Assembly (NCBI GenBank): GCA_003221005.1 | Contig: QHTZ01000067.1 | Coordinates: 38,116-102,115 of the forward strand | Direction of reading: 5' to 3' | Length of the DNA: 64,000 bases | Origin: Gemmatimonadota bacterium | GTDB lineage: Bacteria > Gemmatimonadota > Gemmatimonadetes > Gemmatimonadales > GWC2-71-9 | Shown: piece by piece, positions 4,747-53,593 of the stretch | How the letters are laid out: each line of letters begins with the position of its first letter | Numbering within the stretch: position 1 is the stretch's first letter | Notes under the pieces: generated by a model | Told to the model about the DNA's origin: nothing | What the model saw: the letters and a program-made list of their open reading frames with translations, nothing else | Databases searched by the model: none | Position numbers and translations under genes: made by a program

Positions 4747-4838
4747 AGCGGTGCGCGAAGCTTAACCGGACGCCCGCGGTCGCGGGTAGCCCCGCGACGC
4801 CGGGCGGCACCCGACGAGGCGCGCTATCTTGGAGCACG

Positions 4839-5792: not shown

Positions 5793-6916
5793 CGGCAGCT
5801 CGCGCAAGCCTGCGCATCGCCCTCGTCGCCGAGGACTACTACCCCCAACTGGGGGGCGTCCCGGAGCACGTGCATCATCTGGCCCTCGAGCTCAACCGCC
5901 GTGGCCACGCCGCCACCATCGTCACTTCGCGGATGCGCGGGCCGCAGCGCGATGCCTCGTTCGTGCGCCGCGTGGGCACGAGCGTCGTGCTCTACGCCAA
6001 CGGCGGCGTGTCGCGGATCACCGTCGGGTGGCGGCTCACGCGCCGGCTGACGGAGCTGTTCCAGGCGGGCCGGTTCGACGTCGTTCACATCCACGGCGGG
6101 CTCGCCCCGACCTTTGGCCTCCTCGCGCCGCTGGCCGCCTGGCGTGCCGGGATTCCGGTGGTCGCGACGTTCCATTCCTGGTTTCCGCGCTCCGCCGGCT
6201 ACCGTGTTCTCAAGCGGCCGCTGCAGCGGATGCTCGACCGTCACGCGGCGCTGATCGCCGTGAGCGAGCCCGTGGTCGCCGCGATGTCGCGTTACTTCCG
6301 CGGCGCCTGGGAGATCGTGCCGAACGGCGTGGACGTGGGATACTTCCAGCCCAACGGACGCCGGCCCGGCGATGCCCTCACGCGCGGTCCCCGGCTGCTG
6401 TTCCTGGCGAGACTCGAGCCGAGGAACGGGCTTTCAACCGTGCTCGACGCGATGCCGCGGATCCTCGAGCGCTTCCCGGCGGCCGAGCTGACCGTGGCCG
6501 GCGATGGACCGTGGCGCGGCTATTACGAGCGCCGCGCGCGCTCCCTCGGACCCCGCGTGCGCTTCCTCGGCCGGGTGTTCGGGGACCGCCCGCTGCACTA
6601 CGGCACCGCAGACCTCTATCTCTGTCCAACCACGCGGGCGTCGTTCGGCGTCACCCTGCTCGAGGCGATGGCCTGCGGCACACCGCTCGTCGTATCGGAC
6701 AACGTGGGCTTCCGCGCGGTGCTCGGCGACGGCACCGAGGCCGCCATCGTCCCGAACGACGACCCAGCCGTGTGGGCCGACACAACCATCGCCCTGATCG
6801 AGGATCCGGGGCGACGCGACGCGATGAGCCGGGCCGGACTCGCGAAGGCCGCACGGTTCGCCTGGCCACGGATCGCGGACCAGACGCTCGCCATCTATCA
6901 GCGGATCCTCGCGTGA
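5789..6916 (+). CDS. GT4-family glycosyltransferase (PimA-like)
   Basis: LRIALVAEDYYPQLGGVPEHVHHLALELNRRGH... and a C-terminal E-x7-E-type region (FGVTLLEAMACGTPLVVSD). I trimmed the 519-aa track ORF to the GTG overlapping the upstream stop. Confidence 0.85.
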   Translation: MTAARASLRIALVAEDYYPQLGGVPEHVHHLALELNRRGHAATIVTSRMRGPQRDASFVRRVGTSVVLYANGGVSRITVGWRLTRRLTELFQAGRFDVVHIHGGLAPTFGLLAPLAAWRAGIPVVATFHSWFPRSAGYRVLKRPLQRMLDRHAALIAVSEPVVAAMSRYFRGAWEIVPNGVDVGYFQPNGRRPGDALTRGPRLLFLARLEPRNGLSTVLDAMPRILERFPAAELTVAGDGPWRGYYERRARSLGPRVRFLGRVFGDRPLHYGTADLYLCPTTRASFGVTLLEAMACGTPLVVSDNVGFRAVLGDGTEAAIVPNDDPAVWADTTIALIEDPGRRDAMSRAGLAKAARFAWPRIADQTLAIYQRILA

Positions 6917-7614: not shown

Positions 7615-8558
7615 GGCCAGGCGTGGCGCGCTGGGCGTGGGGCGTCGCTACCCTGGCGGGGTTGGTGGCGGTGTCGGTTCTGGTGCTGCGGTTTCCCTGG
7701 CAACACACGTTCCAGGTGCTCGCCGCCGTCAACGTGGGACTGCTCGCCACGGCGCTGCTCATCAACCTGCTCTCCCCCCTCGCCAAGGGCTGGGCGTGGC
7801 ATCTGCTGCTCCAGCCGGTCGCGGCGAACCGCTGGTGGGTCGCCGAGGAGGCGAACCTGATCGGCACGGCGGTGAACAGCATCGCGGCGGGAGTGAGCGG
7901 CGAGGCCGCTCGCATTTCGCTCATCATGCGGCGCGACACGGTGCCGCTGCGGCCGGCCGTGCTGTCGGTCGTGTGGTCACGCGGCGTGGAAGCGCTGGGT
8001 CTCGGGCTGTTCCTCGTGCTCGCCCCCCTCGTGCTCGAGCTCCCGGCGCCACTGCGGGGCCTGCAGATCGGCGCCGGTGCGGCGCTCGTCGCCGCGCTGG
8101 CGCTGACGCGGGTCCGCGGCCTCGGCGACCTGATCGCCAAGCTTCCCGCGAGCCTGCGCGCCGGCGCGGCAGAGCTTGCCGAAATGAGCTGGGGCGGCCG
8201 ACTGATCGCCCCCACGGCGCTCGCCCTCGTGAGCTGGGCCGCCGAATGGGCCACGTTTCACCTCACGCTCCGGGCCGTCCACATTCCCGCGTCCTACGCC
8301 GCCTCGTTCACGGCGCTGATCGCCGTGAACGTGGGCGGTCTCATCCGAGTCACCCCCGCCAACGTTGGCGTCATGCAGGCGGCGCTCGTGGGCGCCCTGG
8401 TGCCGTTCGGCGTCGCCGCCGACCAGGCCGTCGCGGGCGGACTGGCCCTCCAGGCGATCGAGGTCCTTCCCGTGCTCGCCCTCGCCTTCGCCGTTGCGGG
8501 CTGGACGGGGCTCGTGTCCCTGATGACCGCAGCCGCCGGGCCGCGCGAAGCAACCTGA
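7611..8558 (+). CDS. Flippase-like membrane protein (LPG_synthase_TM / UPF0104, MprF N-terminal type)
   Basis: A 315-aa polytopic membrane protein whose start overlaps the deacetylase stop (GTGA). The sequence pattern fits the UPF0104 family (family call made from memory). Confidence 0.65.
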   Translation: MRPGVARWAWGVATLAGLVAVSVLVLRFPWQHTFQVLAAVNVGLLATALLINLLSPLAKGWAWHLLLQPVAANRWWVAEEANLIGTAVNSIAAGVSGEAARISLIMRRDTVPLRPAVLSVVWSRGVEALGLGLFLVLAPLVLELPAPLRGLQIGAGAALVAALALTRVRGLGDLIAKLPASLRAGAAELAEMSWGGRLIAPTALALVSWAAEWATFHLTLRAVHIPASYAASFTALIAVNVGGLIRVTPANVGVMQAALVGALVPFGVAADQAVAGGLALQAIEVLPVLALAFAVAGWTGLVSLMTAAAGPREAT

Positions 8559-8677
8559 GCCGCTCGGACGGCGCGCCACTTCCGGACGCATGTAGTGTAG
8601 ATAGTGGACGGCCTGGACCCTCACTATTTTGAACGGTGCGTTCCCGCACCGCACCCTCCACCTCCTGGGAGTGAGCC

Positions 8678-10102
8678 ATGACGCTTGAGACTCGGACGCT
8701 GTCCGTCATCGCCTTCACCGGTCTCATTGCGGCGTGTGGCGGGGGCACCGTCGGCATACCGTTCATCGGCTCGGTGAACGGCGCGGCCTCGCCAGCAGGA
8801 GCCGTCGGCGCCCAAGTGATCATCTCGGGCGTCAGTTACGGGGACGTGCAGGGGAGCAGCCAGGTGTTGTTCACGAACTCACTCGGCGGCCTCAGCGTCG
8901 CCGCCCCGATCGCACAGGCGAGCGATTGGACCAATACGTACATCATCACCACGGTGCCGGCCGGGGCGTTCAGCGGCGCACTGGTCGTACAGACCGGCGG
9001 CGGCACGAGCGGCGGCTGGCCATTCACGGTCAGCCCGAGCGTACCGAACGTGCCCCTCACTCCCTCAGCGGTGTCCTGGACCGCGGGCAGCTCGCTCCCC
9101 GTCGCTGTGAGCGGGAATGCTGCTGTGTATGCCCGCGTCCGGACAACGTACGGGACCGACACGGGGTTCGTCTACTCAATCGGCGGCGCGGACAACACGG
9201 GCACGCCGACGACCGGTGTGTACTACGCCGGTATCGGCACGAACGGCTCGCTCGAAGCGTGGAAGGCGACCGCATCGCTGCCCACGGCGCTGGCGTTCCA
9301 CGCCGCCGTCGCCGCCACTCCCCGGAACTCCCCCGTCAACACCACCGGCTATCTCTACGTGCTCGGTGGCGCGACCAATTCGTCCGGCACGGTCTACCGC
9401 GCCGCGCTGAATGCGGACGGGACGGTCGGCGCCTGGACCTCAGTCGGCACCCTTCCCGCGCTCCATTCGTTCGGCGCCATCATCCACCTCGGCTCGCTAT
9501 ACGTCGTGGGAGGAGCCAACAACAGCGCGAACACCGCAGTAGCCACGGTGTACCGGAGGACGATCCAGGTGGACGGGTCCCTCACGACCCCCCCCGGAAC
9601 CCAAGGGCCCCTGCCAGCGCCCCGGGCTCGCTTGGGCATCGGTGCGTACGGGCTCTATATGTACGCCGTGGGCGGCGACACGGCGACGCTCGCCCCCAAC
9701 GACGCGACGCCACCGAACTCGGGGGTCGTCGCTGTGTTCTACGGCAAGCTCAACCCTAGCTCGCACGACATCGCGACGTGGACCGCGGCCGGACAGCTCG
9801 AAACGGCTCGCTCGGCGCACACGGCCGTCATCGCGGGAGGCAACATCCTCGTCACAGGCGGGCTCTACAGCGGAGCGGCGACCGGAACGAACGAGGACAG
9901 CTATGCCGCTATCGCCGCAGACGGCACCGTGGGGAGCTTCAGCCCGGCCTCGGGCGGGACCAAGCTCACGTCCAACCTGTTCAACCACGCCGCCATCGGA
10001 TACTTGAGCACCGGCAGCAATCCGACCTTCCACCTCGTGGTCGTGGGGGGGGACAACGTGAATGCCCCGGGAACCAAGAGTGCCCAGTCGTTCATCTACT
10101 GA
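8678..10102 (+). CDS. Lipoprotein with an IPT/TIG domain and Kelch-type beta-propeller repeats
   Basis: Lipobox LIAAC. IPT-like segment GAQVIISGVSYGDVQGSSQVLF...ITTVPAGAFSGALVV. Repeated motifs YLYVLGG, LYVVGG, MYAVGGD, ILVTGG, LVVVGGDN. Confidence 0.7.
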   Translation: MTLETRTLSVIAFTGLIAACGGGTVGIPFIGSVNGAASPAGAVGAQVIISGVSYGDVQGSSQVLFTNSLGGLSVAAPIAQASDWTNTYIITTVPAGAFSGALVVQTGGGTSGGWPFTVSPSVPNVPLTPSAVSWTAGSSLPVAVSGNAAVYARVRTTYGTDTGFVYSIGGADNTGTPTTGVYYAGIGTNGSLEAWKATASLPTALAFHAAVAATPRNSPVNTTGYLYVLGGATNSSGTVYRAALNADGTVGAWTSVGTLPALHSFGAIIHLGSLYVVGGANNSANTAVATVYRRTIQVDGSLTTPPGTQGPLPAPRARLGIGAYGLYMYAVGGDTATLAPNDATPPNSGVVAVFYGKLNPSSHDIATWTAAGQLETARSAHTAVIAGGNILVTGGLYSGAATGTNEDSYAAIAADGTVGSFSPASGGTKLTSNLFNHAAIGYLSTGSNPTFHLVVVGGDNVNAPGTKSAQSFIY

Positions 10103-10108
10103 GGCGTT

Positions 10109-11764
10109 CTAGCTCGTCGCTAGCTCCGCGCCCGGCAGAAACCGGGGTGGCCGGCGCGCCCGGGTCGCCTGCTCGAGCCCGTATGCCAGCTTGATGAGGA
10201 GCGGTTCGCTGTACGGCCGCCCGATGAACGACACACCGACGGGGAGCGCGAACACGTAGCCCATCGGAACGGTGATGCTCGGATACCCTGCCACGGCGGC
10301 CGGCGTCGAGCTGCCGCCCAGGAAGTGATCGCCGTTCACTAGGTCGATCGTCCAGGGCGGATTCCCCGTGGGGGCGACCACGGCGTCGAGCGCGAACTTC
10401 GCGAGCACAGCGTCGAGCCCCTGGTCCCGCGCGAGTAGCTGGTCCTTCGCCAGCGCCTTCAAATAAGCGTCCTCTGTCAGGGACCCCTTCGCCTCCGCCT
10501 TCTCGAAGAGGTCCTGATCGAAGTAGGTCAGCTCGTCGGCCTGATGCCGCTCGTTGAAATCGATCAACTCCTTGAGGGTGTGGACCGGCGCAGCGGCGCC
10601 AAGGTCGGCGAGGTAGCGGTTGAGGTCGGCCTTGAACTCGTACAGCAGGACCTCGAGCTCCGAGTCGTCGTACTCGCCGGCGTGGGGGATGTCCGCGGGG
10701 TCCACGATCACCGCGCCGAGGCGCCGCATCGTGTCCAACGCCTCCTCCACCAGGCGGTCGGTCGGGGGGTGATAGCCGAAGAACTTGGTGCGCGCGACTC
10801 CGATGCGGGCCCCCTTGAGCCCGTTCGGGTCGAGGAACGAGGCGTAGTCCGTAGAGCCCATAGCCTGGCTCCCCTGCGTGGCGGGATCGCGCGGATCGAC
10901 TCCCGCGAGCACGCTGAGCAGGACGGCGGCGTCGGCCACAGTGCGGGCCATGGGGCCCGCCGTGTCCTGGCTGTGGGCGATGGGGACGATCCCGGAGCGG
11001 CTGACGAGCCCCAGCGTCGGCTTGATGCCGACGAGGGAATGCGCCGCCGACGGGCAAACGATGGAGCCGTCCGTCTCCGTCCCGACCGCGACGGCGCAGC
11101 AGCTCGCGGCGACCGCGGCAGCCGACCCCGAGCTCGATCCGCAGGGGCTGCGATCGAGGGCGTAGGGATTGCGGCACTGACCGCCCCGCGCGCTCCAGCC
11201 GCTCGAGGAGTGGCTCGAGCGGAAGTTCGCCCATTCGCTCAGGTTGGTCTTCCCGAGGATGACCGCTCCAGCGGCTCGCAAGTGCTCAGCCACGAACGCG
11301 TCGCGTGGCGCCCGGGCCCCGACCAGGGCCAGCGACCCCGCGGTCGTTGCCATGCGGTCCGCCGTCGCGACGTTGTCCTTGATCATCACGGGGACGCCGT
11401 GGAGCGGGCCCCGCGGACCCTTGGCCCGGCGCTCGGCGTCGAGCGAATCTGCGATGGCGAGGGCGTCGGGGTTGGTCTCGAGCACCGCCCGGATCGCCGG
11501 CCCCCGGCGGTCCAGGGCGTCGATGCGCGAGAGATACTGCTCGCACAGCCCTCGTGCGGTGTAGCGGCCCGACCGCATCCCCTGCTGCAGCTCCGCGACC
11601 GTAGCTTCTGCGAGATCGAACAGCGCCGGCGCGATAGGCGGGCCCGAGGGCATCGGCGCGGTCATCCGAGCGGGGGTGCGGCGGTCGACAGCCGCGGCCG
11701 CCGCGGCGAGCGTGCCGTACCGCAGGAACTCGCGGCGATCGATCGCATCCTGACGAGCGTGCAT
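10109..11764 (-). CDS. Amidase (amidase-signature family), Tat-exported
   Basis: Twin-arginine leader DRREFLRYGTLAAAAAAV. AS signature GSSSGSAAAVAASCCAVAVGTETDGSIVCPSA. Confidence 0.9.
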   Translation of the reverse strand: MHARQDAIDRREFLRYGTLAAAAAAVDRRTPARMTAPMPSGPPIAPALFDLAEATVAELQQGMRSGRYTARGLCEQYLSRIDALDRRGPAIRAVLETNPDALAIADSLDAERRAKGPRGPLHGVPVMIKDNVATADRMATTAGSLALVGARAPRDAFVAEHLRAAGAVILGKTNLSEWANFRSSHSSSGWSARGGQCRNPYALDRSPCGSSSGSAAAVAASCCAVAVGTETDGSIVCPSAAHSLVGIKPTLGLVSRSGIVPIAHSQDTAGPMARTVADAAVLLSVLAGVDPRDPATQGSQAMGSTDYASFLDPNGLKGARIGVARTKFFGYHPPTDRLVEEALDTMRRLGAVIVDPADIPHAGEYDDSELEVLLYEFKADLNRYLADLGAAAPVHTLKELIDFNERHQADELTYFDQDLFEKAEAKGSLTEDAYLKALAKDQLLARDQGLDAVLAKFALDAVVAPTGNPPWTIDLVNGDHFLGGSSTPAAVAGYPSITVPMGYVFALPVGVSFIGRPYSEPLLIKLAYGLEQATRARRPPRFLPGAELATS

Positions 11765-30094: not shown

Positions 30095-31087
30095 TCAGCG
30101 GAGCCACGCCGAGAGGTCGCGGCCAATGAAGTCGGCTGTGCCCAAGATCTGTTCGCGGTAGTAGTCGATGACCATGGCGCGATCGGCGGGATCCATGGTC
30201 ACGGCGGTCCGCGGTCCGCGGTACAGGCGCACGAGGAGTCGGCGGGCCGGTTCAGGGAGCCGAGTCGTCAGGGCTACCTCGCCAAGCAACCGTCGGCGCA
30301 AGGCGTGCAGGCGCGGGAACCGCGGTACGACGGGCACATTGTGCCGGCGCGATAGGTCCACTGGCACGTCGGGATCGATCTCCAGGAACTCAAAGATGTC
30401 CCGCAACACCGACCGCGCGTCCGCGCAAAAATCCTCGTATAAGTAGACGCGGAGGTGCTTTCGGGGGAACAAGGCCGCGTAGCGCTGCAGGTGGGTCGCG
30501 TATCGCCCCACGAGCACCCTCAGACCCTTCCAGGGATCCGGTCGGTCCGCTGCCTCGAGAAACTGAGCGCGGAATGTCTGGAGGCGGGGACGACGCCACA
30601 GGTTCGCCGCATACTCTGAGAACAGTCGCTGAGCCGGGTCTCGCAGCACGAAAATTAGGCGCGCGTCCGGCACGTGCGCGTGAATCGCCTCAGCGGCGCT
30701 GGGTAACCAGACATGATCGACGCTCGCGTCACCGATGGCGGTCTCCTCGCGCACACGCTGGAAGAGCTCCAGATAGTCCTCCCACTTTGCGACGACCCAC
30801 CTTCTCCCAGATACGTACTCCCACTTCGCGACTGCCCACCGTCTCTCAGGCTCCACCAGGCCCTTCCAATGCGGGTGCAAGTCTTCGAGCTCCTGCATTG
30901 ACTGGCGCACGACGCGATCACCGTTCGCGTCAGACAGGATGTCGGCCGCTCCGAAGAACGTCGGCTCCTTTGGCCAGCACATGTAAACCTGGGGATGTTG
31001 TTGCAGGTAGGCGTACAGCGAGGAGGTGCCGGCTTTGGGCACGCCCGCGAGAAAGAACGTCGGGAGCTTGCCCGTACCAGGTGTCAT
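30095..31087 (-). CDS. PAPS-dependent sulfotransferase
   Basis: 5'-PSB loop FFLAGVPKAGTSSLYAYL. 3'-PB motif FVLRDPAQRLFSEY. Confidence 0.8.
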   Translation of the reverse strand: MTPGTGKLPTFFLAGVPKAGTSSLYAYLQQHPQVYMCWPKEPTFFGAADILSDANGDRVVRQSMQELEDLHPHWKGLVEPERRWAVAKWEYVSGRRWVVAKWEDYLELFQRVREETAIGDASVDHVWLPSAAEAIHAHVPDARLIFVLRDPAQRLFSEYAANLWRRPRLQTFRAQFLEAADRPDPWKGLRVLVGRYATHLQRYAALFPRKHLRVYLYEDFCADARSVLRDIFEFLEIDPDVPVDLSRRHNVPVVPRFPRLHALRRRLLGEVALTTRLPEPARRLLVRLYRGPRTAVTMDPADRAMVIDYYREQILGTADFIGRDLSAWLR

Positions 31088-45327: not shown

Positions 45328-46557
45328 TTACGGGTCGAACCGGTCCAGCTTCCGGTCCCGCCGCCGCGCGAGCCAGTAGAGCGGCACGCCCAGGATCAGC
45401 GTCGCCCCTGAGGCGACCCACGCCTCAGCGATCCCCCGTGTGCGCGCGAGCCATCCCCATCCCGTCTGCCCGGCCACGCCACCCACGTTCGCGAAGAATG
45501 AATCGAGCGAGATGATCGTGGCTCGCTGCTGCGACGGGATGTGGGCGTTGAGATAGCCCTGCTTCACCGGCATCCCCACGCCGAGTGCCATGCCATAGAC
45601 GAGGTACAGCCCCACCACCACGTAGAAGTCCCGCAGCAGGCCGCACAGGACTACCGTGACCACCTGCACGACCACTGACGCGATCAGCATTCCGGTGCGC
45701 GAGCGAACGACGCGCGACAGCGGCACGACAAGCGCATTGCCGGCGATCAGCGTGAGCGACGTGAGCGCGGCGATCACCCCCGACACCCACACCGCCTCCC
45801 GCCCCAGCAGGTCCAGGAAGTAGCGCTGCCAGCTGTAGAAGCCGAAGATCATAAAGCTCATCGAGACGAGCGACCCGAGCATCAGCGGCCGGACCACCGG
45901 GTGGTGCAAGCCGTAGCGCATGCCCTCCACGAACACGCGCCGCATCTCCGCCGGCACGCGCGACAACGCGAGCGCACGCGGGGTGTAGCCGAGCTCGCGC
46001 ATCCCGAACCAGGCCAGCGCGAACAACGGCACCACGATTCCCGCCCGCACGAGGTAGGGCACGGCGAGATCGATCTGACCCAGCAAGCCGCCGGCGAGGG
46101 TACCGACCAGCATCGCCGCGCCGAACGCCATCTGACCGCGCGCGAACACCGGCTCGAGCGGCGCGGTGTACCCCGTCGCCTTGAGAGCGTCGACCAGCCA
46201 TGCGTCCACCGCGCCGGTGTAGAACGTGTAGCCGAGTCCCAGAAACACCGACACGGCGGCGAACGGCCAGAAGCCCCACCCGAGCCGCGCGATCGCCACG
46301 TAGCAGAGTGTGGTGACGAACAAGGTGGCGAGGCACAACAGCAGCGAAATACGCCGCCCGAGGGTGTCGGCGACGACGCCGGTGGGGATCTCGAACAGGA
46401 CGTTGCCCAGCGTGAACGCGGCATTCGTGAGCATCACCTGGAAGATGTCCAACCCCGCGTGGAGCTTGAACAGCGTGTCGATGCCCCAGATCAGGGACAT
46501 CGCCAGGTTGAAGAGCCCGGTGATCAGCAGGTAGACGCGGATGATCTGTGCGCTCAC
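45328..46557 (-). CDS. MFS transporter
   Basis: 409 aa with 12 TM-like segments. GVVADTLGRRISL motif. The GTG overlaps the upstream stop (GTGA). Confidence 0.8.
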   Translation of the reverse strand: MSAQIIRVYLLITGLFNLAMSLIWGIDTLFKLHAGLDIFQVMLTNAAFTLGNVLFEIPTGVVADTLGRRISLLLCLATLFVTTLCYVAIARLGWGFWPFAAVSVFLGLGYTFYTGAVDAWLVDALKATGYTAPLEPVFARGQMAFGAAMLVGTLAGGLLGQIDLAVPYLVRAGIVVPLFALAWFGMRELGYTPRALALSRVPAEMRRVFVEGMRYGLHHPVVRPLMLGSLVSMSFMIFGFYSWQRYFLDLLGREAVWVSGVIAALTSLTLIAGNALVVPLSRVVRSRTGMLIASVVVQVVTVVLCGLLRDFYVVVGLYLVYGMALGVGMPVKQGYLNAHIPSQQRATIISLDSFFANVGGVAGQTGWGWLARTRGIAEAWVASGATLILGVPLYWLARRRDRKLDRFDP

Positions 46558-47423
46558 GGAACGTGCGCCTCGAGCCAGTCGTGCGCGATCGCCCGGATGT
46601 CCTGGTGCTGCACGTCGGCCAGCGCATTCAAGCGCCGCATCTCGTCGTCCGAGATCTTGCCGGTCAGCTCGCCGAGCGCGGCCGCCACCTCGGGATGGCG
46701 CCGCAACACCACTTCACGCGCGACGACCGCGGCTTCGTAGGGAGGGAAGTAATGCCGATCGTCTTCCAGGGCGACGAGATCGAGCGCGGCGATCTGACCG
46801 TCCGTCGAGTTGCCGGCGATCATGTCCACCTTTCCGTCGGCGAGCGCGCGGTAGGTGAGTCCCAAGTCCATCGCGGTCGGAGGCGCGCGGAAGGCAAGCC
46901 TGTACACCTGCGACAGCCCGGCGAATCCGTCTGCGCGCTCCAGGAACTCGTAACCGAACCCCGCCTTCCACCGCGGCGCGACGCGCGCCACGTCGGAGAT
47001 CCGCGTCAGGCCATATTGCCGCGCTTCCGTCCGGCGGATCAGAATCGCGAACGTGTTGTTGAAGCCGAACGGCGCGAGCCACCGCAGGCCGAAGCGTGCC
47101 GCATAGTCGCGCGCCACGACTCGCGCCACGCTGTCCCGATCGCTCACCGGGGGGTGCTTGAGCACCGCCGTGAACGCGGTGCCCGTGTACTCGGGATAGA
47201 GATCGATCTGTCCCGCGACGATCGCCTGATGACACACGAACGTGCCACCCAGGTGCAGGCGTCGCTCCACGGGCAGGTGCGCGCGCCGCTCGATCTGCTG
47301 CGCCACGAGCTCGGCGAGCAAGTCGGACTCCGTGAAGTTCTTGGCGCCCACGACGATCCGGTCGTGCCGGGCACACGAACTTGCTGCGGAGAGCGCGAGC
47401 ACCGCGGCGAGCAACGCGAGCAT
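46554..47423 (-). CDS. Quaternary-amine (glycine betaine/choline type, OpuAC-fold) ABC substrate-binding lipoprotein
   Basis: Lipobox LSAASSC. IVVGAKNFTESDLLAELVAQQIE...IDLYPEYTGT is typical of OpuBC/OsmX-type binding proteins. The start could be further upstream (up to 47525). Confidence 0.75.
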   Translation of the reverse strand: MLALLAAVLALSAASSCARHDRIVVGAKNFTESDLLAELVAQQIERRAHLPVERRLHLGGTFVCHQAIVAGQIDLYPEYTGTAFTAVLKHPPVSDRDSVARVVARDYAARFGLRWLAPFGFNNTFAILIRRTEARQYGLTRISDVARVAPRWKAGFGYEFLERADGFAGLSQVYRLAFRAPPTAMDLGLTYRALADGKVDMIAGNSTDGQIAALDLVALEDDRHYFPPYEAAVVAREVVLRRHPEVAAALGELTGKISDDEMRRLNALADVQHQDIRAIAHDWLEAHVP

Positions 47424-47550
47424 GCCGGCCCGGCGTTTCCCGTGCCCTGAAGGGCCGGCTCGGCGTAAACGCGCGTCTTTAAAGACGCGACCTCGGCCGA
47501 GCCGGCGTTTCAACGCACGGACCACACGTGAGGCCAGGTGGGAGTCCTGC

Positions 47551-48180
47551 TCACCTTGCCCGCCACACCAGCCGCCGCTCGAGCAGCGCGAACAGGCCGT
47601 CCGCCGCCAGCGCCATCAGCGCCGCCGGGATCGCGCCCGCGAGGATCAAGGTGTCGTCCACCACCGCCACGCCGCGGAAGACGTAGACGCCGAGCCCGCC
47701 CGCGCCGATCGCGGCGCCGATCGTAGCCACGCCCACGCTCACGACCGTCGCGACGCGCACACCCGCGAGAATGACCGCCGCAGCGAGGGGCAGCTCCACC
47801 AGCCGCAGCAGCTCGGCGTCCGTCATCCCCATGCCGCGACCGGCTTCGCGGATGGCTGGGTCCACGCCCGCGATTCCCGTGTAGGTGTTGCGCACGATGG
47901 GGAGTAGCGCGTACACGATCAGCGCGGTGATCGCCGTCCAGAACCCGATGCCGAAGATCGGAATGAGGATCCCGAAGAGCGCGAGGCTCGGGATCGTCTG
48001 GAACACCCCCGCGAGCCCGAGCACGGGGGGCCGCCACGCGGGTCGGCGGGTGAGCACCACGCCGAGGGGAATCCCCACGAGTGCCGCGGCACCGGTCGAG
48101 AGTACCACCAAGACGAGGTGCTGACCGACGAGACCGAGTGCCTCATGGGCGTTGCGCGCGAAGAACGCTACCAACCTCAT
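47551..48180 (-). CDS. ABC transporter permease (OpuBB-like)
   Basis: 209 aa, 5-6 TM, with an EAA-like loop IREAGRGMGMTDAELLRLVELP. Confidence 0.8.
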   Translation of the reverse strand: MRLVAFFARNAHEALGLVGQHLVLVVLSTGAAALVGIPLGVVLTRRPAWRPPVLGLAGVFQTIPSLALFGILIPIFGIGFWTAITALIVYALLPIVRNTYTGIAGVDPAIREAGRGMGMTDAELLRLVELPLAAAVILAGVRVATVVSVGVATIGAAIGAGGLGVYVFRGVAVVDDTLILAGAIPAALMALAADGLFALLERRLVWRAR

Positions 48181-48929
48181 GCCGCCTCCAGGAAGCGGCG
48201 GACCTCGGGGTGCTCGTTGCGACGGAATTCGTCGGGGGTACCGAGGAACAGCAGCCGTCCCGCATGCATCAACCCGATGCGCGTCCCCAGGAGCAGCCCC
48301 TCCCGCACGTCGTGGGTCACGAACACCATGCCCTTTCCCAGCCGCCCCTCGAGGGCGCGGAATTCCTGCTGCAGTTCGAAGCGCGTAATGGGATCGAGTG
48401 CGCCGAACGGCTCGTCCAGGAGCAGCAGCGGCGGGTCGGCAGCGAGCGCGCGCGCCACCCCGACCCGCTGCCGCTGACCGCCCGAGAGCTGGTGCGGATA
48501 GCGTCCACCGAACGCCTCCGGGTCGAGCCCCACGAGCGCGAGCAGCTCGCGCACCCGGGCCGCGATCCGCTCTGGAGGCCAGCGTTCGAGCCGCGGCACG
48601 AGTCCCGCGTTCTCGGCCACCGTGAAATGCGGCAGCAGACCCACCTCCTGAATCACGTAGCCGATCCGCCGCCGCAGCGACGTGGGCTCGAGCGCCGCGG
48701 TCCGCTGCCCCGCCACCAACACCTCCCCCACCGAAGGCTCGAGCAGACGGTTGATGAGCTTAAGTGTGGTCGTCTTCCCAGAGCCGCTGCGGCCGAGGAG
48801 CACGAGGGTCTCTCCTGCACCCACAGTGAAGGACACGTCCCGGACGATCGGCAGGACCCGTCCCTCCTCCCCCGTCCCTCTTCCCGGCAACGTATAGCCG
48901 AGTCCCCGGACCTCGAGCACGGCGCTCAT
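48177..48929 (-). CDS. ABC transporter ATP-binding protein
   Basis: Walker A GRSGSGKTT, signature LSGGQRQRV, Walker B LLLLDEP. The ATG at 48927-48929 overlaps the upstream stop (ATGA). Confidence 0.9.
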   Translation of the reverse strand: MSAVLEVRGLGYTLPGRGTGEEGRVLPIVRDVSFTVGAGETLVLLGRSGSGKTTTLKLINRLLEPSVGEVLVAGQRTAALEPTSLRRRIGYVIQEVGLLPHFTVAENAGLVPRLERWPPERIAARVRELLALVGLDPEAFGGRYPHQLSGGQRQRVGVARALAADPPLLLLDEPFGALDPITRFELQQEFRALEGRLGKGMVFVTHDVREGLLLGTRIGLMHAGRLLFLGTPDEFRRNEHPEVRRFLEAA

Positions 48930-49879
48930 TGCGCCCCCGCCCCCACCAGCACCATTTGAAAGCGGCCGTCTTCGCTCGTCCCGCGCCAGCGCTGCCCGAG
49001 GCCGGCATCTCGCAGGATTCGCAGGAACGTGTCGGCGTCGTACTTGTACGAGTGGTTCATTTCCAGCCGCTCGCCGGCACCGAGGGTCAGGGACTCTCCG
49101 CCGAGCCGGGCGGCGACGTCGCGGGTCGCCCGGAAGTGCTTGGTGAGGGGATGCAGCCCGGGGACGCGCGCGTCCTCGCGGTCCTCGAACACGAGCTCGC
49201 CGTCGGCCTCGGTGATCCCGACGGCGTGGAGCGGCGCCCACGCGAAGCGCCGGTTCAGGGGGTTGTCATAGCCAGCGACGGTGGCCTGGGCGGCGTAGAT
49301 CTCGCCGTCCACGAGGAGCAGGTCGTCCCCGCGGAGCAGTTTCCGCAGGGCCCGCGTCTCGACCAGCGGATCGAATGCGCCGAGGGTGTTGCCCAGGAGC
49401 AAAATCAGGCGCGGCGGCGTTTCGGGATTAGGCGCCAGTGCAGTGAGGTGGTCGGTCCGTGTGAAGTCGGCCTTGACGCCCTGGGCGGGGAGCCCCGCGG
49501 CGACGGCGCCCTGACACGCGAGCTCGAGCAACGCCTGGCTCGTGTCTACGGGCGTGTAGGAGACGCGGATCCCGTGGGGTCGCAGCGCTTCGATGAGAAG
49601 CAGGTCCTTGTCCCCCTGCCCCGAGCCCAGGCTCAGGACCTCGAGCGGGCCGGGGGGTATGTAGCCAGCGAGGTCGGCGGCGGACCGAGCGATGAGCGAG
49701 CGCGACCGCACGTAGTTCCGGTAGGCGCCGTCCGAGCAGAGGGCGAGCCAGGCTCGGACGGACAGCGGAAACCAATAGAAGAATTTCTCCGGGAGCCGAC
49801 GCGCGCGAAACGCGGCGACGAACTCGTCGGCGAGCGCGGTCTCGGTAAGTAGCGTGTGAGTGACGATCACGGAGTTCAA
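48926..49879 (-). CDS. Methyltransf_33 / EgtD-family SAM-dependent N-methyltransferase (divergent)
   Basis: LPEKFFYW..., LSLGSGQGDKDLLLIEAL, LLLGNTLGAFDP and ...LEMNHSYKYDADTFLRILRDAGL follow the layout of histidine N-alpha-methyltransferase-type enzymes. The His-binding N-terminal motifs are not well conserved. Confidence 0.55.
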   Translation of the reverse strand: MNSVIVTHTLLTETALADEFVAAFRARRLPEKFFYWFPLSVRAWLALCSDGAYRNYVRSRSLIARSAADLAGYIPPGPLEVLSLGSGQGDKDLLLIEALRPHGIRVSYTPVDTSQALLELACQGAVAAGLPAQGVKADFTRTDHLTALAPNPETPPRLILLLGNTLGAFDPLVETRALRKLLRGDDLLLVDGEIYAAQATVAGYDNPLNRRFAWAPLHAVGITEADGELVFEDREDARVPGLHPLTKHFRATRDVAARLGGESLTLGAGERLEMNHSYKYDADTFLRILRDAGLGQRWRGTSEDGRFQMVLVGAGAQ

Positions 49880-49889
49880 GAGTTACCGG

Positions 49890-49918
49890 TTGACGGGTCT
49901 GGCGGCAACCCGTATGCT
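49890..49918 (+). promoter_or_regulatory. Sigma70-like promoter for the peptide/AKR/DUF692 operon
   Basis: TTGACG, a 17-nt spacer, then TATGCT. It sits in a locally lower-GC divergent intergenic region. Confidence 0.45.
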
Positions 49919-49969
49919 ACGTTTCGTCTGCCGTCGTCTGATTTCCACGTAAAGACGGAGGATATTCGC

Positions 49970-50062
49970 ATGCAGATCGTCGAGACGCAGGAGCTCGTGC
50001 CCACCTGTCATCGGCCTGAGGTCGTGGAGACGAGCGAGCTGCAGCCAACCTGTCACTCCTGA
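49970..50062 (+). CDS. 30-aa candidate RiPP precursor with two tandem ETxELxPTCH units
   Basis: GGAGG lies 9 nt upstream of the ATG. The ORF encodes MQIVETQELVPTCHRPEVVETSELQPTCHS. It is first in an operon with a DUF692 enzyme and RRE-like domains. Confidence 0.6.
   Translation: MQIVETQELVPTCHRPEVVETSELQPTCHS
49982..50056 (+). repeat. Two 30-nt direct repeats (45-nt period) encoding the ETxELxPTCH units
   Basis: gagacgcaggagctcgtgcccacctgtcat and gagacgagcgagctgcagccaacctgtcac. Confidence 0.8.
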
Positions 50063-50076
50063 CGCAGGGCGGCTGG

Positions 50077-51201
50077 ATGCAAGAGGGGGCCCGGACCGAT
50101 TTCGGGCCCCTTTCGCGTTTCCTGGGCACGGAGGCGCGACTGGGGTTCGGGGGCTGGGCGGTGGGCGGCGCGGGCTGGGGGACGCCAGACGACACGCACG
50201 AGCGCGAGGCCGCGATCCGGCGCGCCGTCGAGCGGGGCGTCACGTTCTTCGACACCGCGCCGACGTACGGTGACGGCGAGTCCGAGCGACTGCTGGGCCG
50301 CGCGCTCGGAACCGTGCGCGAGCGGGTGGCGATCGCCACCAAGGTCGGCCCGCGCGACGATCCACGCGCCTCACTCGAAGCGTCGCTGCGCCGCCTCACC
50401 ACGGACTGCGTGGACCTGGTGCAGCTGCACGAAGCGCTCGAACGGTGGGAATGGCAACTCGAAGCGCTCTATCGGCTGCAGCTCGAGGGAAAGGCCCTCG
50501 CGATCGGGCTCTGCAACGCCACTCACCTGCAGGTCGCGCGGGCGCTGACCATCGCTCCCCTGGCGACGTATCAGGGCACCTACAACCTGTTCGATCGCGA
50601 CGTAGAAGAGCGCGAGCTGCCACTGTGCCGCGAACGTGGCCTCGCGTTCCTGGCATTCCGGCCGCTCGCCGCAGGCCTGCTCACCGGCAAGTACCGGGAG
50701 CCTCCCGCCTTCCCGGACGATGACCACCGCCGCAAGGTCTATTGGTTCAAGGGGAAGGAGTTCGAGCGCCGCCAGCGGACGATCGAGCGGCTGCGGCGCG
50801 TTGCGCGCCGGGAGGGCGTGTCGCTGCTCGAGCTCGCCCTGGGGTGGCTGCGCGCGCGGCCGGGGGTGAACATGGTCCTGGTGGGCGCGAGAAACCGGTC
50901 GCAGGTCGAGGAGGCGTTCGTCCCGGGCGTCGGGCCGCTGACAGCGGACACGGTGAACGAGATCGACCTCATAGTCCGCGAGGTCTTCCGCCCGGGCCGC
51001 GGCACGGCGCAACTCGAGCGGGCGGCCGCGACGTGGGGAGAGCGCGAGCGCTTCATCGCGGCGCGGCTCGACGGGAAGACTCGCTACGAAGCGATCGCCG
51101 CCGAGTGGACCGACCGCGGCGAACAGCCGATGATCGCGGCGCAGATCAAGGTGTTCGTGGACCAGTTGGCTGAGCAACGGTTGGTTGACGCCGACGGCTG
51201 A
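50077..51201 (+). CDS. Aldo/keto reductase with a C-terminal PqqD/RRE-like extension
   Basis: AKR core FFDTAPTYGDGESERLLG, IATKVG and VDLVQLHE (Asp/Tyr/Lys/His all present). An extra tail of about 55 aa reads ERERFIAARLDGKTRYEAIAAEWTDRGEQPMIAAQIKVFVDQLAEQRLV. Confidence 0.75.
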   Translation: MQEGARTDFGPLSRFLGTEARLGFGGWAVGGAGWGTPDDTHEREAAIRRAVERGVTFFDTAPTYGDGESERLLGRALGTVRERVAIATKVGPRDDPRASLEASLRRLTTDCVDLVQLHEALERWEWQLEALYRLQLEGKALAIGLCNATHLQVARALTIAPLATYQGTYNLFDRDVEERELPLCRERGLAFLAFRPLAAGLLTGKYREPPAFPDDDHRRKVYWFKGKEFERRQRTIERLRRVARREGVSLLELALGWLRARPGVNMVLVGARNRSQVEEAFVPGVGPLTADTVNEIDLIVREVFRPGRGTAQLERAAATWGERERFIAARLDGKTRYEAIAAEWTDRGEQPMIAAQIKVFVDQLAEQRLVDADG

Positions 51202-51207
51202 CCGCTG

Positions 51208-51993
51208 ATGGCTCTCATGGTCGGGGCGTTCTACAACCCTCAGCTCGGCGCTGAGCTCGCTGCGGCGAAGGGCATCGACCACCTCGCCATGGCCGACCCG
51301 CCGGCAGCACACGATGCGCACTGGCCCACCATCCGCGAGCGCTACACGCTGCTGCTCCACGACTACCTCGGCCAGCTCTCCGAGCCGCTCGATGAACGCT
51401 CGATCGAGCGTGCCCGCTCCCTCGCTACGTTGTACCGCACACCGTGGATCGCCGAGCATTTCCAGTGCCTGCACACGGAAGACGGGCGCTACAACATCAA
51501 CTACGTGTTCCCGCCGCTCTACACCGACGAGTTTCTGGAGCGTTTCGTCGCCAACGCACGCGCGCTCCAGGCGCGGCTCGAGCAGCCGCTCGTGATGGAG
51601 AACATCCCCGGCTTCTTCGACGTCAAGGCGAGCCAGCTCCCGGAGCCTGTCTGGCTCGCGCGTTTCTTCGACGCGACCGAGGTCGGCTTTCTGCTCGACC
51701 TGCCGCACGTTTGGCTCGAGGCCCACTACCGCGGCATGAAGCCTGAAGCGTGGCTCGCGCAATTCCCGCTCGAGCACGTAGTCGAGCTGCACGTGGCCGG
51801 CGTCGAGGAGGACGAGGACCTGCGAGGTCCCTGGATCGCGCCCACCGCCCCGTCGGAGGCCATGCTCGCGTTTCTGGCGCACGCCGTCACTCGCTGTCCC
51901 CGGGCCAAGGCTGTCACGTTCGACGCATTTTCGCCGTCGCTCACCGCCGACGTGCTGTTCCGGAGCGTTGAACGGATCCGGGGGGCGCTGTGA
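51208..51993 (+). CDS. DUF692-family TIM-barrel enzyme (MNIO; MbnB/TglH/ChrH/BufB family)
   Basis: LLLHDYLGQLSEPLD, TPWIAEHF, LVMENIPGFF and GFLLDLPHVWLEAHYRG...VVELHVAG follow the DUF692 motif order. Confidence 0.7.
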   Translation: MALMVGAFYNPQLGAELAAAKGIDHLAMADPPAAHDAHWPTIRERYTLLLHDYLGQLSEPLDERSIERARSLATLYRTPWIAEHFQCLHTEDGRYNINYVFPPLYTDEFLERFVANARALQARLEQPLVMENIPGFFDVKASQLPEPVWLARFFDATEVGFLLDLPHVWLEAHYRGMKPEAWLAQFPLEHVVELHVAGVEEDEDLRGPWIAPTAPSEAMLAFLAHAVTRCPRAKAVTFDAFSPSLTADVLFRSVERIRGAL

Positions 51994-52760
51994 CCGACCG
52001 GGCACTCCAGGACCTGGTGCTGCGCGCGCTGGCCGACGCCTCGTTCCGGGCGTCATCCGCCTGGCGGCAGCGTGCGCTCGCGGACCCCGCGAAGGTGGAG
52101 CGGTTCGCACGCTTCCTCGCGCGGCACTTCTACTACGAGCGGATCGTGCACTTCTTCAAGTACTCGGGGGCGCTGGCGCGTGTGACCGGCCGGCGACCAG
52201 AGGGGACGCTCCGCGGTGCCGAATTCGAAGCGCTGCTCCCCGTGGTCGTACTCGGCAGTCGGCAGACGGCTCGCGCGGTCGCCGATCTCGTCGTGCGCGA
52301 AGTGAAGGGCGGCGCCCCCGTGGCCTCGATCCCATATCGCGACGACTTGCTGCGCTACGAGGCGGCGATGATGGTCGCGGAGGCGGGGCCGAGGGTGTGG
52401 CGAGAGAACGGGAAGGGGGAAGAGGGAAGAGGAACGGGTGTCCCGGAAACCGCTGAAGGAACAGTGCTGCTGGATCTCGCCTACGACCTACCGGCGGTCC
52501 TGCCGCAGCTGCTCCAGCCGTGGACCGAGGTGCCGCAGGCGCCGCCGCGACCGGTGCGACTCCTCGTCGCGCGCTCGCCCCGCGGCCGGGTCGCGGTCGC
52601 TCGCACCGACAGCGCGGTGGCGCGCGTGGTCGAGCTCGCGGACGGCCGCCGCACCCTCGAAGAGCTCGCACGCGCGGCCGGGTTGCCGCGGAACGAGCTC
52701 GAGGCCACGCTCGCCGGGCTCACCGACCTCGGCGCCGTTCGCTTCGGGACGGGCAGCTGA
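51990..52760 (+). CDS. MNIO partner protein with a C-terminal PqqD/RRE-like winged helix
   Basis: The GTG overlaps the DUF692 stop (GTGA). The C-terminus reads VARVVELADGRRTLEELARAAGLPRNELEATLAGLTDLGAV. Confidence 0.6.
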   Translation: MTDRALQDLVLRALADASFRASSAWRQRALADPAKVERFARFLARHFYYERIVHFFKYSGALARVTGRRPEGTLRGAEFEALLPVVVLGSRQTARAVADLVVREVKGGAPVASIPYRDDLLRYEAAMMVAEAGPRVWRENGKGEEGRGTGVPETAEGTVLLDLAYDLPAVLPQLLQPWTEVPQAPPRPVRLLVARSPRGRVAVARTDSAVARVVELADGRRTLEELARAAGLPRNELEATLAGLTDLGAVRFGTGS

Positions 52761-52771
52761 GCGCCGTGGCG

Positions 52772-53593
52772 TTACGCGGGCTTTCGCGCGCGCACGAACG
52801 CGCCCATGATCCTGCCGCTCACCTCGCGCGCCAGGACATCGACGTCGAGCCCGGCCCCAGCCAGCACGGCCCGCGCATCCTCGAAGCTGTAGATCCGGGT
52901 CGGCTCGATCCCGACGTTTTCGAAGCCGTTCGCGCTAAGCAGCGCCTTGAACTCTTCCTCCTCGAGGGCGCCGGCCACGCATCCCACCCACAGCTCCATG
53001 CTGCGGCGCACCTCACGCGGGATCTCCCCCCGCACCACGACGTCGGAGACGGCGAACCGGCCACCGGGCTTGAGCACGCGAAACGCCTCGGCCAGCACCC
53101 GCCGCTTATCGGCGGCGAGGTTGATGACGCAGTTCGAGATGATGACGTCCACCGACGCGTCCGGAAGAGGAATGCGCTCGATGTCCCCTTTCAAGAACTC
53201 GACGTTCTCGACCCCGGCCTTCCGCTGGTTTTCGCGCGCCAGGGCGAGCATCTCGTCGGTCATGTCGAGCCCGTACGCCTTGCCGGTCGGCCCCACGCGC
53301 CGGGCGGAGAGCAGCACGTCGATGCCCCCGCCGGAGCCGAGGTCGAGCACCACTTCTCCCGGGAGCAGCTCGGCGAGCGCAGTTGGGTTGCCGCAGCCGA
53401 GCGAAGCGAGCACGGCTTGCTCGGGGAGGGACGCGGTCTCAGCAGCCTCGTACAGGTTGGATGTGACGGGATCGCAGCCGCCGCTCGCTGCGGCGCCGCC
53501 GCAACACGAGCTTCCCTGCCCGTGCAGCACGCGCAGCGCCGCCTCTCCGTACTTCGCCCGTACGGTGTCCTTGATCACGGTGTCGTCGGTCAT
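52772..53593 (-). CDS. arsM: Arsenite S-adenosylmethyltransferase-like methyltransferase
   Basis: N-terminal Cys pairs (GSSCCGG...GGCD) and motif I VVLDLGSGGGIDVLL. LKPGGRFAVSDVV is typical of ArsM. Confidence 0.8.
   Translation of the reverse strand: MTDDTVIKDTVRAKYGEAALRVLHGQGSSCCGGAAASGGCDPVTSNLYEAAETASLPEQAVLASLGCGNPTALAELLPGEVVLDLGSGGGIDVLLSARRVGPTGKAYGLDMTDEMLALARENQRKAGVENVEFLKGDIERIPLPDASVDVIISNCVINLAADKRRVLAEAFRVLKPGGRFAVSDVVVRGEIPREVRRSMELWVGCVAGALEEEEFKALLSANGFENVGIEPTRIYSFEDARAVLAGAGLDVDVLAREVSGRIMGAFVRARKPA

Follow-up and report, generated by a model that had tools for sequence, protein, structure and literature searches.

The window analysed here is a stretch of 64,000 nucleotides of contig QHTZ01000067.1 from a Gemmatimonadota bacterium. 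It carries on its forward strand a 30-codon open reading frame (ORF; 49970..50062, ATG to TGA) with the product MQIVETQELVPTCHRPEVVETSELQPTCHS. The peptide is built of two similar units, and we are confident that it is a genuine substrate of the oxidase (multinuclear non-heme iron-dependent oxidase, MNIO; DUF692) encoded 1.1 kb 3' of it, modified at Cys or, in some relatives, at selenocysteine (Sec). It would be the translated precursor of an undescribed MNIO-type system for RiPPs (peptides that are synthesized ribosomally and modified post-translationally); we give the mechanism set out below as a whole, its heterocycle step included, about even chances of being right. The gene, its frame and start, the selection on it, the variation in unit number, the linkage, the domain and fold identities and the alternation of Cys with TGA were established directly.

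The peptide gene and its relatives

Translation bore out the original prediction, an earlier reading of this DNA, of a peptide with two units that end in Thr-Cys-His, and the 45 nt period and unit coordinates also hold. Unit 1, IVETQELVPTCH, occupies 49976..50011 (Cys13 codon at 50006-50008) and unit 2, VVETSELQPTCH, occupies 50021..50056 (Cys28 codon at 50051-50053), both on the + strand. Two details were corrected: the 30 nt cores (49982-50011 and 50027-50056, period 45) share 22 of 30 bases on recounting, not 24, and the spacer given as RPE reads R-P-E-V, one Val having been dropped from the earlier scheme, so that the peptide has 30 residues and not 29. With the two preceding codons included, 26 of 36 bases are identical. 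A repeat of this period with at least 22/30 matches occurs at no other site in the window; over 21 in-frame periods (30-90 nt), the same threshold is reached at four further periods (33, 39, 69 and 87), with 33 qualifying offsets in total. The repeat is thus unusual in the window, but its rarity is not convincing alone. The sole other notable repeat with an in-frame period in the window is a tandem repeat at 30769-30849 (39 nt period, 2.1 copies, 83% matches, TRF score 111). The N-terminus of the peptide, MQIVETQELVP, is acidic and has no hydrophobic segment, and hence there is no signal peptide for Sec-dependent secretion; the C-terminus is ...CHS. A comparison of the peptide with the NCBIfam models gave no match.

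A ribosome-binding site, GGAGGA (49957..49962, + strand), lies 7 nt 5' of the ATG, and the upstream columns -10 to -6 are conserved. The prediction had set aside a 68-residue ORF starting with GTG (49856..50062), and rightly so: this ORF overlaps the divergent methyltransferase gene and begins 5' of the promoter-like site at 49890-49918, and conservation in relatives begins at the ATG at 49970. The stretch of this frame that leads back to GTG 49856 shows no conservation, and in relatives a stop just 5' of the ATG often closes it. On these comparative grounds, together with the overlap, the gene is the 30-codon ORF starting at 49970.

Relatives were gathered by anchoring loci on the downstream MNIO protein and not on the peptide; 80 loci came from species-representative genomes and 45, found with a second anchor, from metagenomes (125 in all). 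Of the 125, 115 have a small ORF built of such units; it lies 5' of the MNIO gene and on its strand, in the same frame. Nine of the remaining ten end too near the MNIO gene to include the peptide and one (L042) is without it. Since the loci were gathered by MNIO similarity, this and the other co-occurrence figures describe this MNIO subfamily only. In a check of the kind that had been proposed, the small ORF was found at this position beside DUF692 genes of Gemmatimonadales, Actinomycetota and Terriglobales/Acidobacteria, with its frame kept. Homologous loci were also searched for lack of a conserved small ORF and for conservation of another frame, and neither pattern was found. L042 (1-1713) is the sole locus with sufficient upstream sequence yet no peptide gene; its reductase is truncated to the C-terminal recognition tail described below, with unrelated sequence before it, a state due to deletion, rearrangement or misassembly.

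The two-unit ORF is present in 75 loci as 56 distinct DNA versions that encode 27 peptide versions. Among the 56 DNA versions, 13 of 29 sites vary at codon position 1, eight of 29 at position 2 and 25 of 29 at position 3, with mean entropies of 0.20, 0.15 and 0.57, respectively. Neither the stop nor Met1, Cys13, His14, Cys28 or His29 varies; the core of unit 1 reads P-S-C-H in most relatives, its Cys and His being invariant. The 60 nt upstream of the ATG are unconserved (about 1.8 bits) save for the ribosome-binding site. From the third-position variation, and from conservation that starts exactly at the ATG, we conclude that the aligned sequences describe a genuine gene whose peptide is under purifying selection. 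Spurious ORFs are common in a window of 69% G+C, and one might suspect either a chance ORF or merely the C-terminal end of the 68-residue GTG ORF. The third-position pattern, the invariant ATG and stop, the conserved ribosome-binding site and an upstream extension that is unconserved, often stop-closed and in the window runs into the methyltransferase gene reduce the chance of this to almost nil.

The unit consensus is hydrophobic-hydrophobic-(E/D)-x-x-(E/D)-hydrophobic-x-P-(T/S)-C-H, and the number of units varies among relatives from one to four, in line with the multi-core prediction. Gemmatimonadales have two units with an RPE spacer; Actinomycetota have three or four, and in two of the three loci (L068 and L069) the 12-residue units abut without a spacer. 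Terriglobales have three units with four-residue spacers, His being the last residue of the peptide, and a further Acidobacteria-like group has one unit, with TGA at the Cys codon position. A profile search with the peptides against a database of 5.8 billion proteins gave 172 clusters, all unnamed or `hypothetical' and none with a Pfam domain. The idea that the acidic ExxEL segment acts as a recognition motif within each unit fits the data, since ExxEL is as conserved as the core and the units of L068 and L069 abut spacer-free. Each unit of 12-15 residues would join to its core, P-(T/S)-Cys-His, a recognition segment of its own, (I/V)(V/I)E-x-x-E-L-x, that is acidic and β-strand-like, and one peptide would deliver two substrates in the window and one to four in relatives.

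TGA stands at the Cys codon of a single unit in L077 (~5785-5870), L078 (~2310-2400), L080-L084 and L086-L092, the reading frame ending ...E-S-L-V-P-T-TGA-CAC-TAA. The His codon and the stop are kept in all TGA-type loci, with synonymous CAC/CAT and TAA/TAG changes, and in this main group the bases after the stop diverge until a conserved hairpin, CCGGCU-CGUGU-GGCCGG, is reached. L085 is a Cys ortholog: it has TGT at the TGA position, an MNIO that is 79% identical to that of the TGA group and a similar hairpin, which is still present. A third group, L117 (~1660-1760), L118 (~120-230) and L119 (697-790), reads P-T-TGA-H-N-stop, and L119 has Sec-type and Cys-type precursor genes in tandem, each with its own ribosome-binding site. 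All eight distinct TGA-type sequences fold to a hairpin with a loop beginning 18-25 nt after the UGA, although the single-sequence z scores, -0.04 to -2.9, are modest; in L118 and L119 unrelated stems bear GGUC/GGUCA loops, and in L117 the loop is GGCU.

Support for a candidate selenocysteine insertion (SECIS) element comes from conservation, from position and from the independent hairpins of L117-L119, not from covariation. The stem of the main group is 98% paired and shows no double compensatory change because it is nearly invariant, which counts against the assignment. A search of 12 Sec-type and Cys-type loci against Rfam (E ≤ 10) returned no SECIS family, the matches being one ordinary tRNA and chance microRNAs. 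We consider that the TGA probably codes for selenocysteine in these relatives; the peptide of the window itself has Cys. As Cys and TGA alternate at the same codon, the chalcogen atom would be the functional centre of the unit, and the probable Sec relatives point to a natural product of sulfur or selenium that is as yet undescribed.

The peptide operon and the predicted modification

A single operon encodes the peptide, a reductase, the MNIO and an MNIO partner; its first two junctions are gaps of 14 and 6 nt and its third is a 4 nt overlap. The MNIO (51208..51993, + strand; PF05114, E = 1e-26) belongs to a divergent subfamily and is encoded directly 3' of the peptide in Acidobacteria loci. 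Only 3BWW and TglH (8HCI_D) matched it in the PDB, at ~1e-9. The partner gene (51990..52760, + strand) has a GTG start that overlaps the MNIO stop (GTGA, 4 nt). Its protein sequence gave weak hidden Markov model (HMM) matches only (ApyI, 25.5 against a cut-off of 200, and NGO1945_C) and no match when searched against the PDB. The AlphaFold model of the partner (pLDDT 80.7, pTM 0.79) was therefore the basis of a Foldseek comparison with the PDB, in which the best folds were TglI in the TglHI complex (8HCI_A, E = 1.3e-5) and then NGO1945/DUF2063 (3DEE, E = 1.8e-4). The TglI and NGO1945/DUF2063 types are the two known kinds of MNIO partner, and as modelled the partner is TglI/DUF2063-like. A conserved unit-built ORF next to an MNIO and a partner of this fold supports the original reading of the peptide as a multi-core RiPP precursor. 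Three features go beyond that reading: the EgtD-like methyltransferase of all informative loci, with its betaine-type importer; the recognition domain of the reductase; and the probable Sec relatives.

The reductase (50077..51201, + strand) is an aldo-keto reductase (PF00248, E = 1.2e-59, residues 21-299) with a C-terminal PqqD-like peptide-recognition domain (RiPP recognition element; RRE). The tail of ~65 residues (~50998-51198, residues ~308-374) is conserved; among 20 orthologous tails, 19 gave a match to PF05402 PqqD, the best at E = 5e-5. The presence of the RRE suggests that the reductase works on the peptide; to our knowledge, no reductase-RRE fusion has been described in an MNIO cluster. 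The reductase is confined to Gemmatimonadales and Actinomycetota. These neighbours bear on the idea that the product is an unmodified Cys-His micropeptide with a metal-binding or redox role, the enzymes beside it acting on other substrates. Cys-His and Sec-His dyads do bind metals and occur in redox enzymes. The micropeptide is nevertheless very improbable given the tight, conserved co-transcription with an MNIO/partner pair, for which the known substrates are peptides only, the RRE on the reductase and the lack of any other conserved candidate substrate ORF in the loci.

A sigma-70-like promoter candidate, TTGACG-17-TATGCT (49890..49918, + strand), lies in the divergent intergenic region of ~90 nt and is the sole consensus match in 49600-50400 (shuffles: mean 0.0). 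A GC-rich 13 bp hairpin followed by CUUUCGCGUUUCC (50083..50113, + strand) is situated 21 nt 3' of the peptide stop, within the first reductase codons. The segment 50060-50125 (66 nt) has a folding energy of -33.1 kcal/mol (z = -2.3), and the GGGGCCCG...CGGGCCCC stem is present in all 22 Gemmatimonadales relatives inspected. The hairpin was not called in a scan for intrinsic terminators 3' of the peptide gene; it may be a partial terminator or an mRNA stabilizer that raises precursor mRNA over enzyme mRNA.

A short ORF at the head of an operon, with a strong conserved hairpin and a U-containing tract 21 nt after its stop, could also be a regulatory leader peptide, the translation of which would sense the Cys/His supply and govern the hairpin and read-through, with no role as a substrate. 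Purifying selection acts on the whole amino-acid sequence, however, beyond the Cys and His codons, of which there are only two each, and the unit structure persists in three phyla from which the hairpin is missing. The ORF also adjoins two proteins with peptide-recognition domains, and Sec-recoded versions would be senseless as an amino-acid sensor. We regard a leader peptide as extremely improbable.

In the mechanism that we favour, a unit would dock by its acidic strand to the TglI/DUF2063-like partner, and its Cys, or the Sec in some relatives, would be oxidized by the MNIO. MNIO/DUF2063 pairs turn every Cys of repeated EGKCG cassettes into thiooxazoles in a cluster without a protease (PMC12538549), and the radical SAM enzyme SbtM makes thio(seleno)oxazoles on a precursor in which TGA is followed by a SECIS element (PMC11002830). 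By this precedent, reaction with the carbonyl of the Thr/Ser before it, at a loss of 4 H per Cys, would most likely yield a 5-thio(seleno)oxazole or its isomer, an oxazolone-thio(seleno)amide. The soft S or Se donor beside the invariant His imidazole would make a metal-binding or redox-active site. Drawn by analogy, a heterocycle of the thio(seleno)oxazole type is a tentative assignment to which we give slightly less than an even chance. In Gemmatimonadales and Actinomycetota the RRE-bearing reductase would reduce a carbonyl on the still peptide-bound intermediate.

The MNIO might instead carry out other chemistry, for instance excision of the Cys β-carbon (as by TglH), N-Cα backbone cleavage (as by MovX) or modification of His or Thr with the thiol or selenol left free, and so give something other than a thiooxazole or a thiohistidine. 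The enzyme is roughly equidistant from the characterized subfamilies, its best HMM is that of ApyH, which does not act on Cys, and its partner resembles TglI; the range of MNIO reactions is also widening, with nitriles, hydroxylations and ortho-tyrosines among titles from 2025-2026. On Cys motifs, nonetheless, MNIOs most commonly convert the Cys to a heterocycle. The alternation of Cys with Sec agrees with a role of the chalcogen in the product but does not separate the chemistries. We consider these other reactions, taken together, quite unlikely.

The MNIO and partner genes overlap in the window, but many Gemmatimonadales loci have an unrelated gene between them (for example, L016 6780-7990, L003 6782-7480 and L058 6783-7730). 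These inserts differ and, as labelled from their ORF translations, include a secreted protein of ~400 residues, a membrane protein and a β-propeller-like protein. L049 has an ORF between reductase and MNIO (4825-5976) that reads in translation as α/β-hydrolase-like. Convergent with the partner gene of the window is the gene of an S-adenosylmethionine (SAM)-dependent methyltransferase (Methyltransf_31/11/25; 52772-53593, - strand), which from our own reading of its sequence we take to be arsenite-methyltransferase-like; it is not conserved beside the cluster in other lineages.

The divergent operon and a small-molecule alternative

An EgtD-like (Methyltransf_33) SAM methyltransferase (48926..49879, - strand) heads a second operon (45328-49879), divergent from the peptide gene. 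It is followed on the same strand by an ABC ATPase of the betaine/proline/choline (ProV) family (48177..48929), the start of which overlaps the methyltransferase stop (ATGA), and by an ABC permease of the choline/betaine type (47551..48180), which has an ATGA overlap with the ATPase stop. Next come a substrate-binding lipoprotein of the OpuAC/OpuBC/OpuCC/EgtUC family for quaternary amines (46554..47525; PF04069, E = 5.7e-60) and an MFS efflux-type transporter (45328..46557), which starts with a GTG overlapping the binding-protein stop (GTGA) and is syntenic in most Gemmatimonadales loci. Three of the four junctions are 4 nt ATGA/GTGA overlaps and the gap between permease and binding protein is 25 nt, so an exporter and a binding-protein-dependent importer stand side by side in one operon. 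The binding protein has an N-terminal signal (...LALSAASSC), and its best PDB matches include OpuBC/OpuCC (1e-49 to 1e-57) and EgtUC, the receptor for ergothioneine (2e-47). Going by the families of its binding protein, permease and ATPase, the ABC system is a predicted quaternary-amine importer of the OpuB/OpuC/EgtUV type.

The methyltransferase is present in all 101 loci with enough flank, the other 24 being without the relevant flank. Its gene stands upstream, in divergent orientation, in Gemmatimonadales, Actinomycetota and the three-unit Terriglobales; in the second Acidobacteria-like group the order is peptide, MNIO, partner, methyltransferase, ATPase, permease and binding protein, all on the same strand. 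The linkage survives rearrangement across phyla and so argues for a shared function. The ABC importer is a usual, not a universal, companion of the set of peptide, MNIO, partner and methyltransferase.

Against the EgtD equivalog model (TIGR03438) the methyltransferase scores 61.6 bits, with a cut-off of 290.9. Its residues were mapped onto Mycobacterium tuberculosis EgtD, with residue roles taken from PMC8593015, and 16 family members were compared. The two residues that bind the carboxylate, Tyr206 and Ser284, are kept as Tyr204 and Ser277 and are invariant (16/16). Asn166, which binds the α-amine, is replaced by Ala, Gly, Ile or Val; Glu282, which lines the histidine-binding site, by Asn or Ser; and Thr213, which positions a water bonding the imidazole, by Asn. 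As the carboxylate-binding pair is kept and the other three positions are changed, the enzyme probably still binds an amino-acid-like substrate with a carboxylate, other than plain histidine. In the favoured mechanism it would put a methylated (betaine-type) amine on a released fragment with a free carboxylate; the co-transcribed MFS exporter would send the product out and the quaternary-amine ABC importer would recapture it.

The same genes can be read as a route to a small molecule for which the peptide is a scaffold. The MNIO would couple the Cys sulfur or Sec selenium to the adjacent His imidazole, and a derivative of thio- or seleno-histidine would be released from each unit by elimination and proteolysis. 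N-methylation by the EgtD-like enzyme would then give an ergothioneine-, selenoneine- or ovothiol-like betaine, which the EgtUV-like importer would recapture, and the reductase would act on the pyruvoyl ends that arise from dehydroalanine and stay on the peptide. EgtB and OvoA couple Cys sulfur to an imidazole intermolecularly, and selenium is used naturally in selenoneine and ovoselenol.

This route accounts for more of the gene set than the heterocycle model does. His directly follows Cys or Sec in every unit of every lineage, and Sec variants exist. The EgtD-like methyltransferase occurs in every informative locus, is translationally coupled to a betaine-type importer and keeps the EgtD residues that bind the amino-acid carboxylate, and the binding protein is of the same family as EgtUC. 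Repeated cores would suit stoichiometric production of a small molecule. Among MNIO pathways, that of TglI, the best structural match of the partner, is the sole one to build a small molecule with a peptide as the scaffold, and four Terriglobales loci have a superoxide dismutase gene after the cluster. The route needs MNIO chemistry without precedent, however; we know of no MNIO that forms a C-S bond to an imidazole. The replacements of Asn166, Glu282 and Thr213 point away from plain histidine as the substrate, the methyltransferase lies far below the EgtD cut-off, neither a C-S lyase nor a protease is conserved in the cluster and the binding protein is nearer to OpuBC/OpuCC than to EgtUC. Overall, we judge the scaffold route unlikely.

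Several points weigh against the mechanism that we favour, with its peptide-borne heterocycle. No chemistry was observed: every chemical step, the order of the steps, the proteolytic release and the physiological role were inferred. The MNIO scores far below the cut-off of every characterized NCBIfam subfamily (ApyH 105.2/400, BufB 86.3/310, HvfB 51.5/360, ChrH 17/600 and MbnB 13.6/325 bits), so its reaction is not transferable by homology. The reductase is absent from all Acidobacteria-type loci and is hence not core. The flanks of all locus types contain no conserved protease, lyase or further enzyme and no conserved Sec machinery; EgtB/OvoA sulfoxide synthase, C-S lyase and PEARL ligase are likewise absent from the gene set conserved there. 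A thiooxazole metallophore alone would leave the EgtD-like methyltransferase and the closed-pocket binding protein for small betaines unexplained, and both are a better fit to a small-molecule end product. Finally, as most of the loci are closely related soil metagenome-assembled genomes of Gemmatimonadales, the evidence that counts as independent comes from a handful of lineages (about five, with two gene orders).

Other flanking genes are lineage-specific. In one Terriglobales subclade an Fe/Mn superoxide dismutase gene lies directly 3' of the partner on the same strand (L074 7829-8431, L075 7860-8462, L076 7753-8352 and L079 3351-3905), and in L074 and L076 a TonB-dependent receptor gene adjoins the methyltransferase. 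In L069, from Actinomycetota, the neighbour that abuts the methyltransferase is a TetR regulator whose C-terminal domain is of the BetI type, and an M28 peptidase with a PA domain is encoded downstream of the cluster (3026-3640 and 8479-10713); both are confined to this one locus. Further flank genes, such as SpoIIE and HNH, are unrelated. The methyltransferase or MNIO is split between two frames in L006 (3817-4663), L070 (3736-4663), L108 (1808-2670), L121 (4001-4712) and L122 (1874-2621), which come from metagenome-assembled genomes or metagenomes; these are frameshifts from assembly error or pseudogenization.

Novelty and comparison with known systems

New peptide chemistry is emerging rapidly from MNIO enzymes, the substrates of which often go unnoticed because they are encoded by very small genes. 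A literature search linking MNIO/DUF692 with EgtD, ergothioneine, thiohistidine, selenocysteine precursors or Gemmatimonadota found nothing, nor does this gene set appear in the MNIO landscape paper or in its supplements. Neither the family models nor the database names nor the literature gave a description of the system, and no MNIO system with an EgtD-like methyltransferase, a quaternary-amine importer and exporter and an RRE-bearing reductase was found in the literature. The 172 unnamed clusters would represent a new precursor family made of self-contained recognition-plus-core units in one to four copies, encoded in compact clusters of four to eight genes. The relatives offer a natural Cys/Sec pair for probing the MNIO mechanism and, if the TGA reading is true, the first selenopeptide MNIO substrates. 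Should the scaffold route hold, improbable as we think it, a thio- or seleno-imidazole betaine made from Cys-His or Sec-His cassettes would be a third, RiPP-like route to antioxidants of the ergothioneine/selenoneine/ovothiol type and the first MNIO pathway with genetically encoded selenocysteine. Whichever the product, a thio(seleno)oxazole-His metallophore or a ribosomally templated thio- or seleno-histidine betaine, its chemistry would be new, and found in soil phyla (Gemmatimonadota and Acidobacteriota) that are abundant and seldom cultured.

A close analogy is with the oxazolins, bufferins and bulbicupramide (HvfA/BufA/MmrA with HvfBC/BufBC/MmrBC), in which, as would be the case here, an MNIO and its partner act on the Cys residues of short repeated peptide motifs. 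In those systems every repeat is modified, the cluster has no protease and the products are metal-binding thiooxazoles or oxazolone-thioamides (PMC12538549; PMC12452194). The precursors there have a Sec-type signal peptide, EGKCG or other Cys motifs, a bona fide DUF2063 partner and often DoxX, whereas the present precursor has no signal peptide, a P-T/S-C-H motif with its own acidic recognition segment and a TglI-like partner. The EgtD-like methyltransferase, the betaine-type importer and the RRE-fused reductase are additional here, and the BufB and HvfB models are missed widely. Methanobactin (MbnA with MbnBC) offers a likeness in that two modified Cys residues could give an N2S2-type copper site and in having an exporter and uptake; it differs in that the MNIO scores 13.6 bits against 325 for MbnB, there are no MbnT/MbnN-like genes and no long leader, and each Cys is in its own repeated unit.

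The pearlin/3-thiaglutamate system (TglA with TglHI) shares TglI as the best match of the partner and TglH as one of the two PDB matches of the MNIO, and there a Cys on a peptide scaffold is oxidized by the MNIO to give a small molecule. The conserved neighbours here include no PEARL (TglB) aminoacyl-tRNA-dependent ligase and no TglG-type protease, and the Cys is encoded by the gene itself, lies within the peptide, recurs in each unit and has His after it in every case. ApyH and ApyI of aminopyruvatide (ApyA with ApyHI) are the best NCBIfam models for the MNIO and the partner, and that precursor is also without a signal peptide. ApyH, however, acts on a C-terminal Asp, in a cluster with a P450 and a B12-dependent radical SAM enzyme, neither of which is found here, and the present peptide ends ...CHS.

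The TGA-type relatives may be likened to the selenobiotic-type system (SbtA with the radical SAM enzyme SbtM), where a SECIS hairpin comes directly after an in-frame TGA of the precursor, Cys and Sec can replace each other and the product is a thio(seleno)oxazole (PMC11002830). The maturase there is a radical SAM/SPASM enzyme and not an MNIO, and the peptide of the window has Cys, TGA being found only in the relatives L077-L092 and L117-L119. The likeness to ergothioneine, selenoneine and ovothiol biosynthesis (EgtD, EgtB/OvoA and EgtUV) lies in a Methyltransf_33 enzyme with carboxylate-binding residues, a binding protein of the EgtUC/OpuCC family and a non-heme-iron oxidase that brings Cys or Sec and His together. 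In contrast, the locus flanks here have no EgtB/OvoA and no C-S lyase, and Cys and His are adjacent residues of a ribosomal peptide. The system is set apart from every named family by the feature that defines that family, be it the signal peptide, the MNIO equivalog, the PEARL ligase, the C-terminal Asp, the EgtD equivalog or EgtB/OvoA, and we propose it as a new MNIO-RiPP family in three soil phyla, with a set of accessory genes that has no precedent and with some members that are probably selenopeptides.

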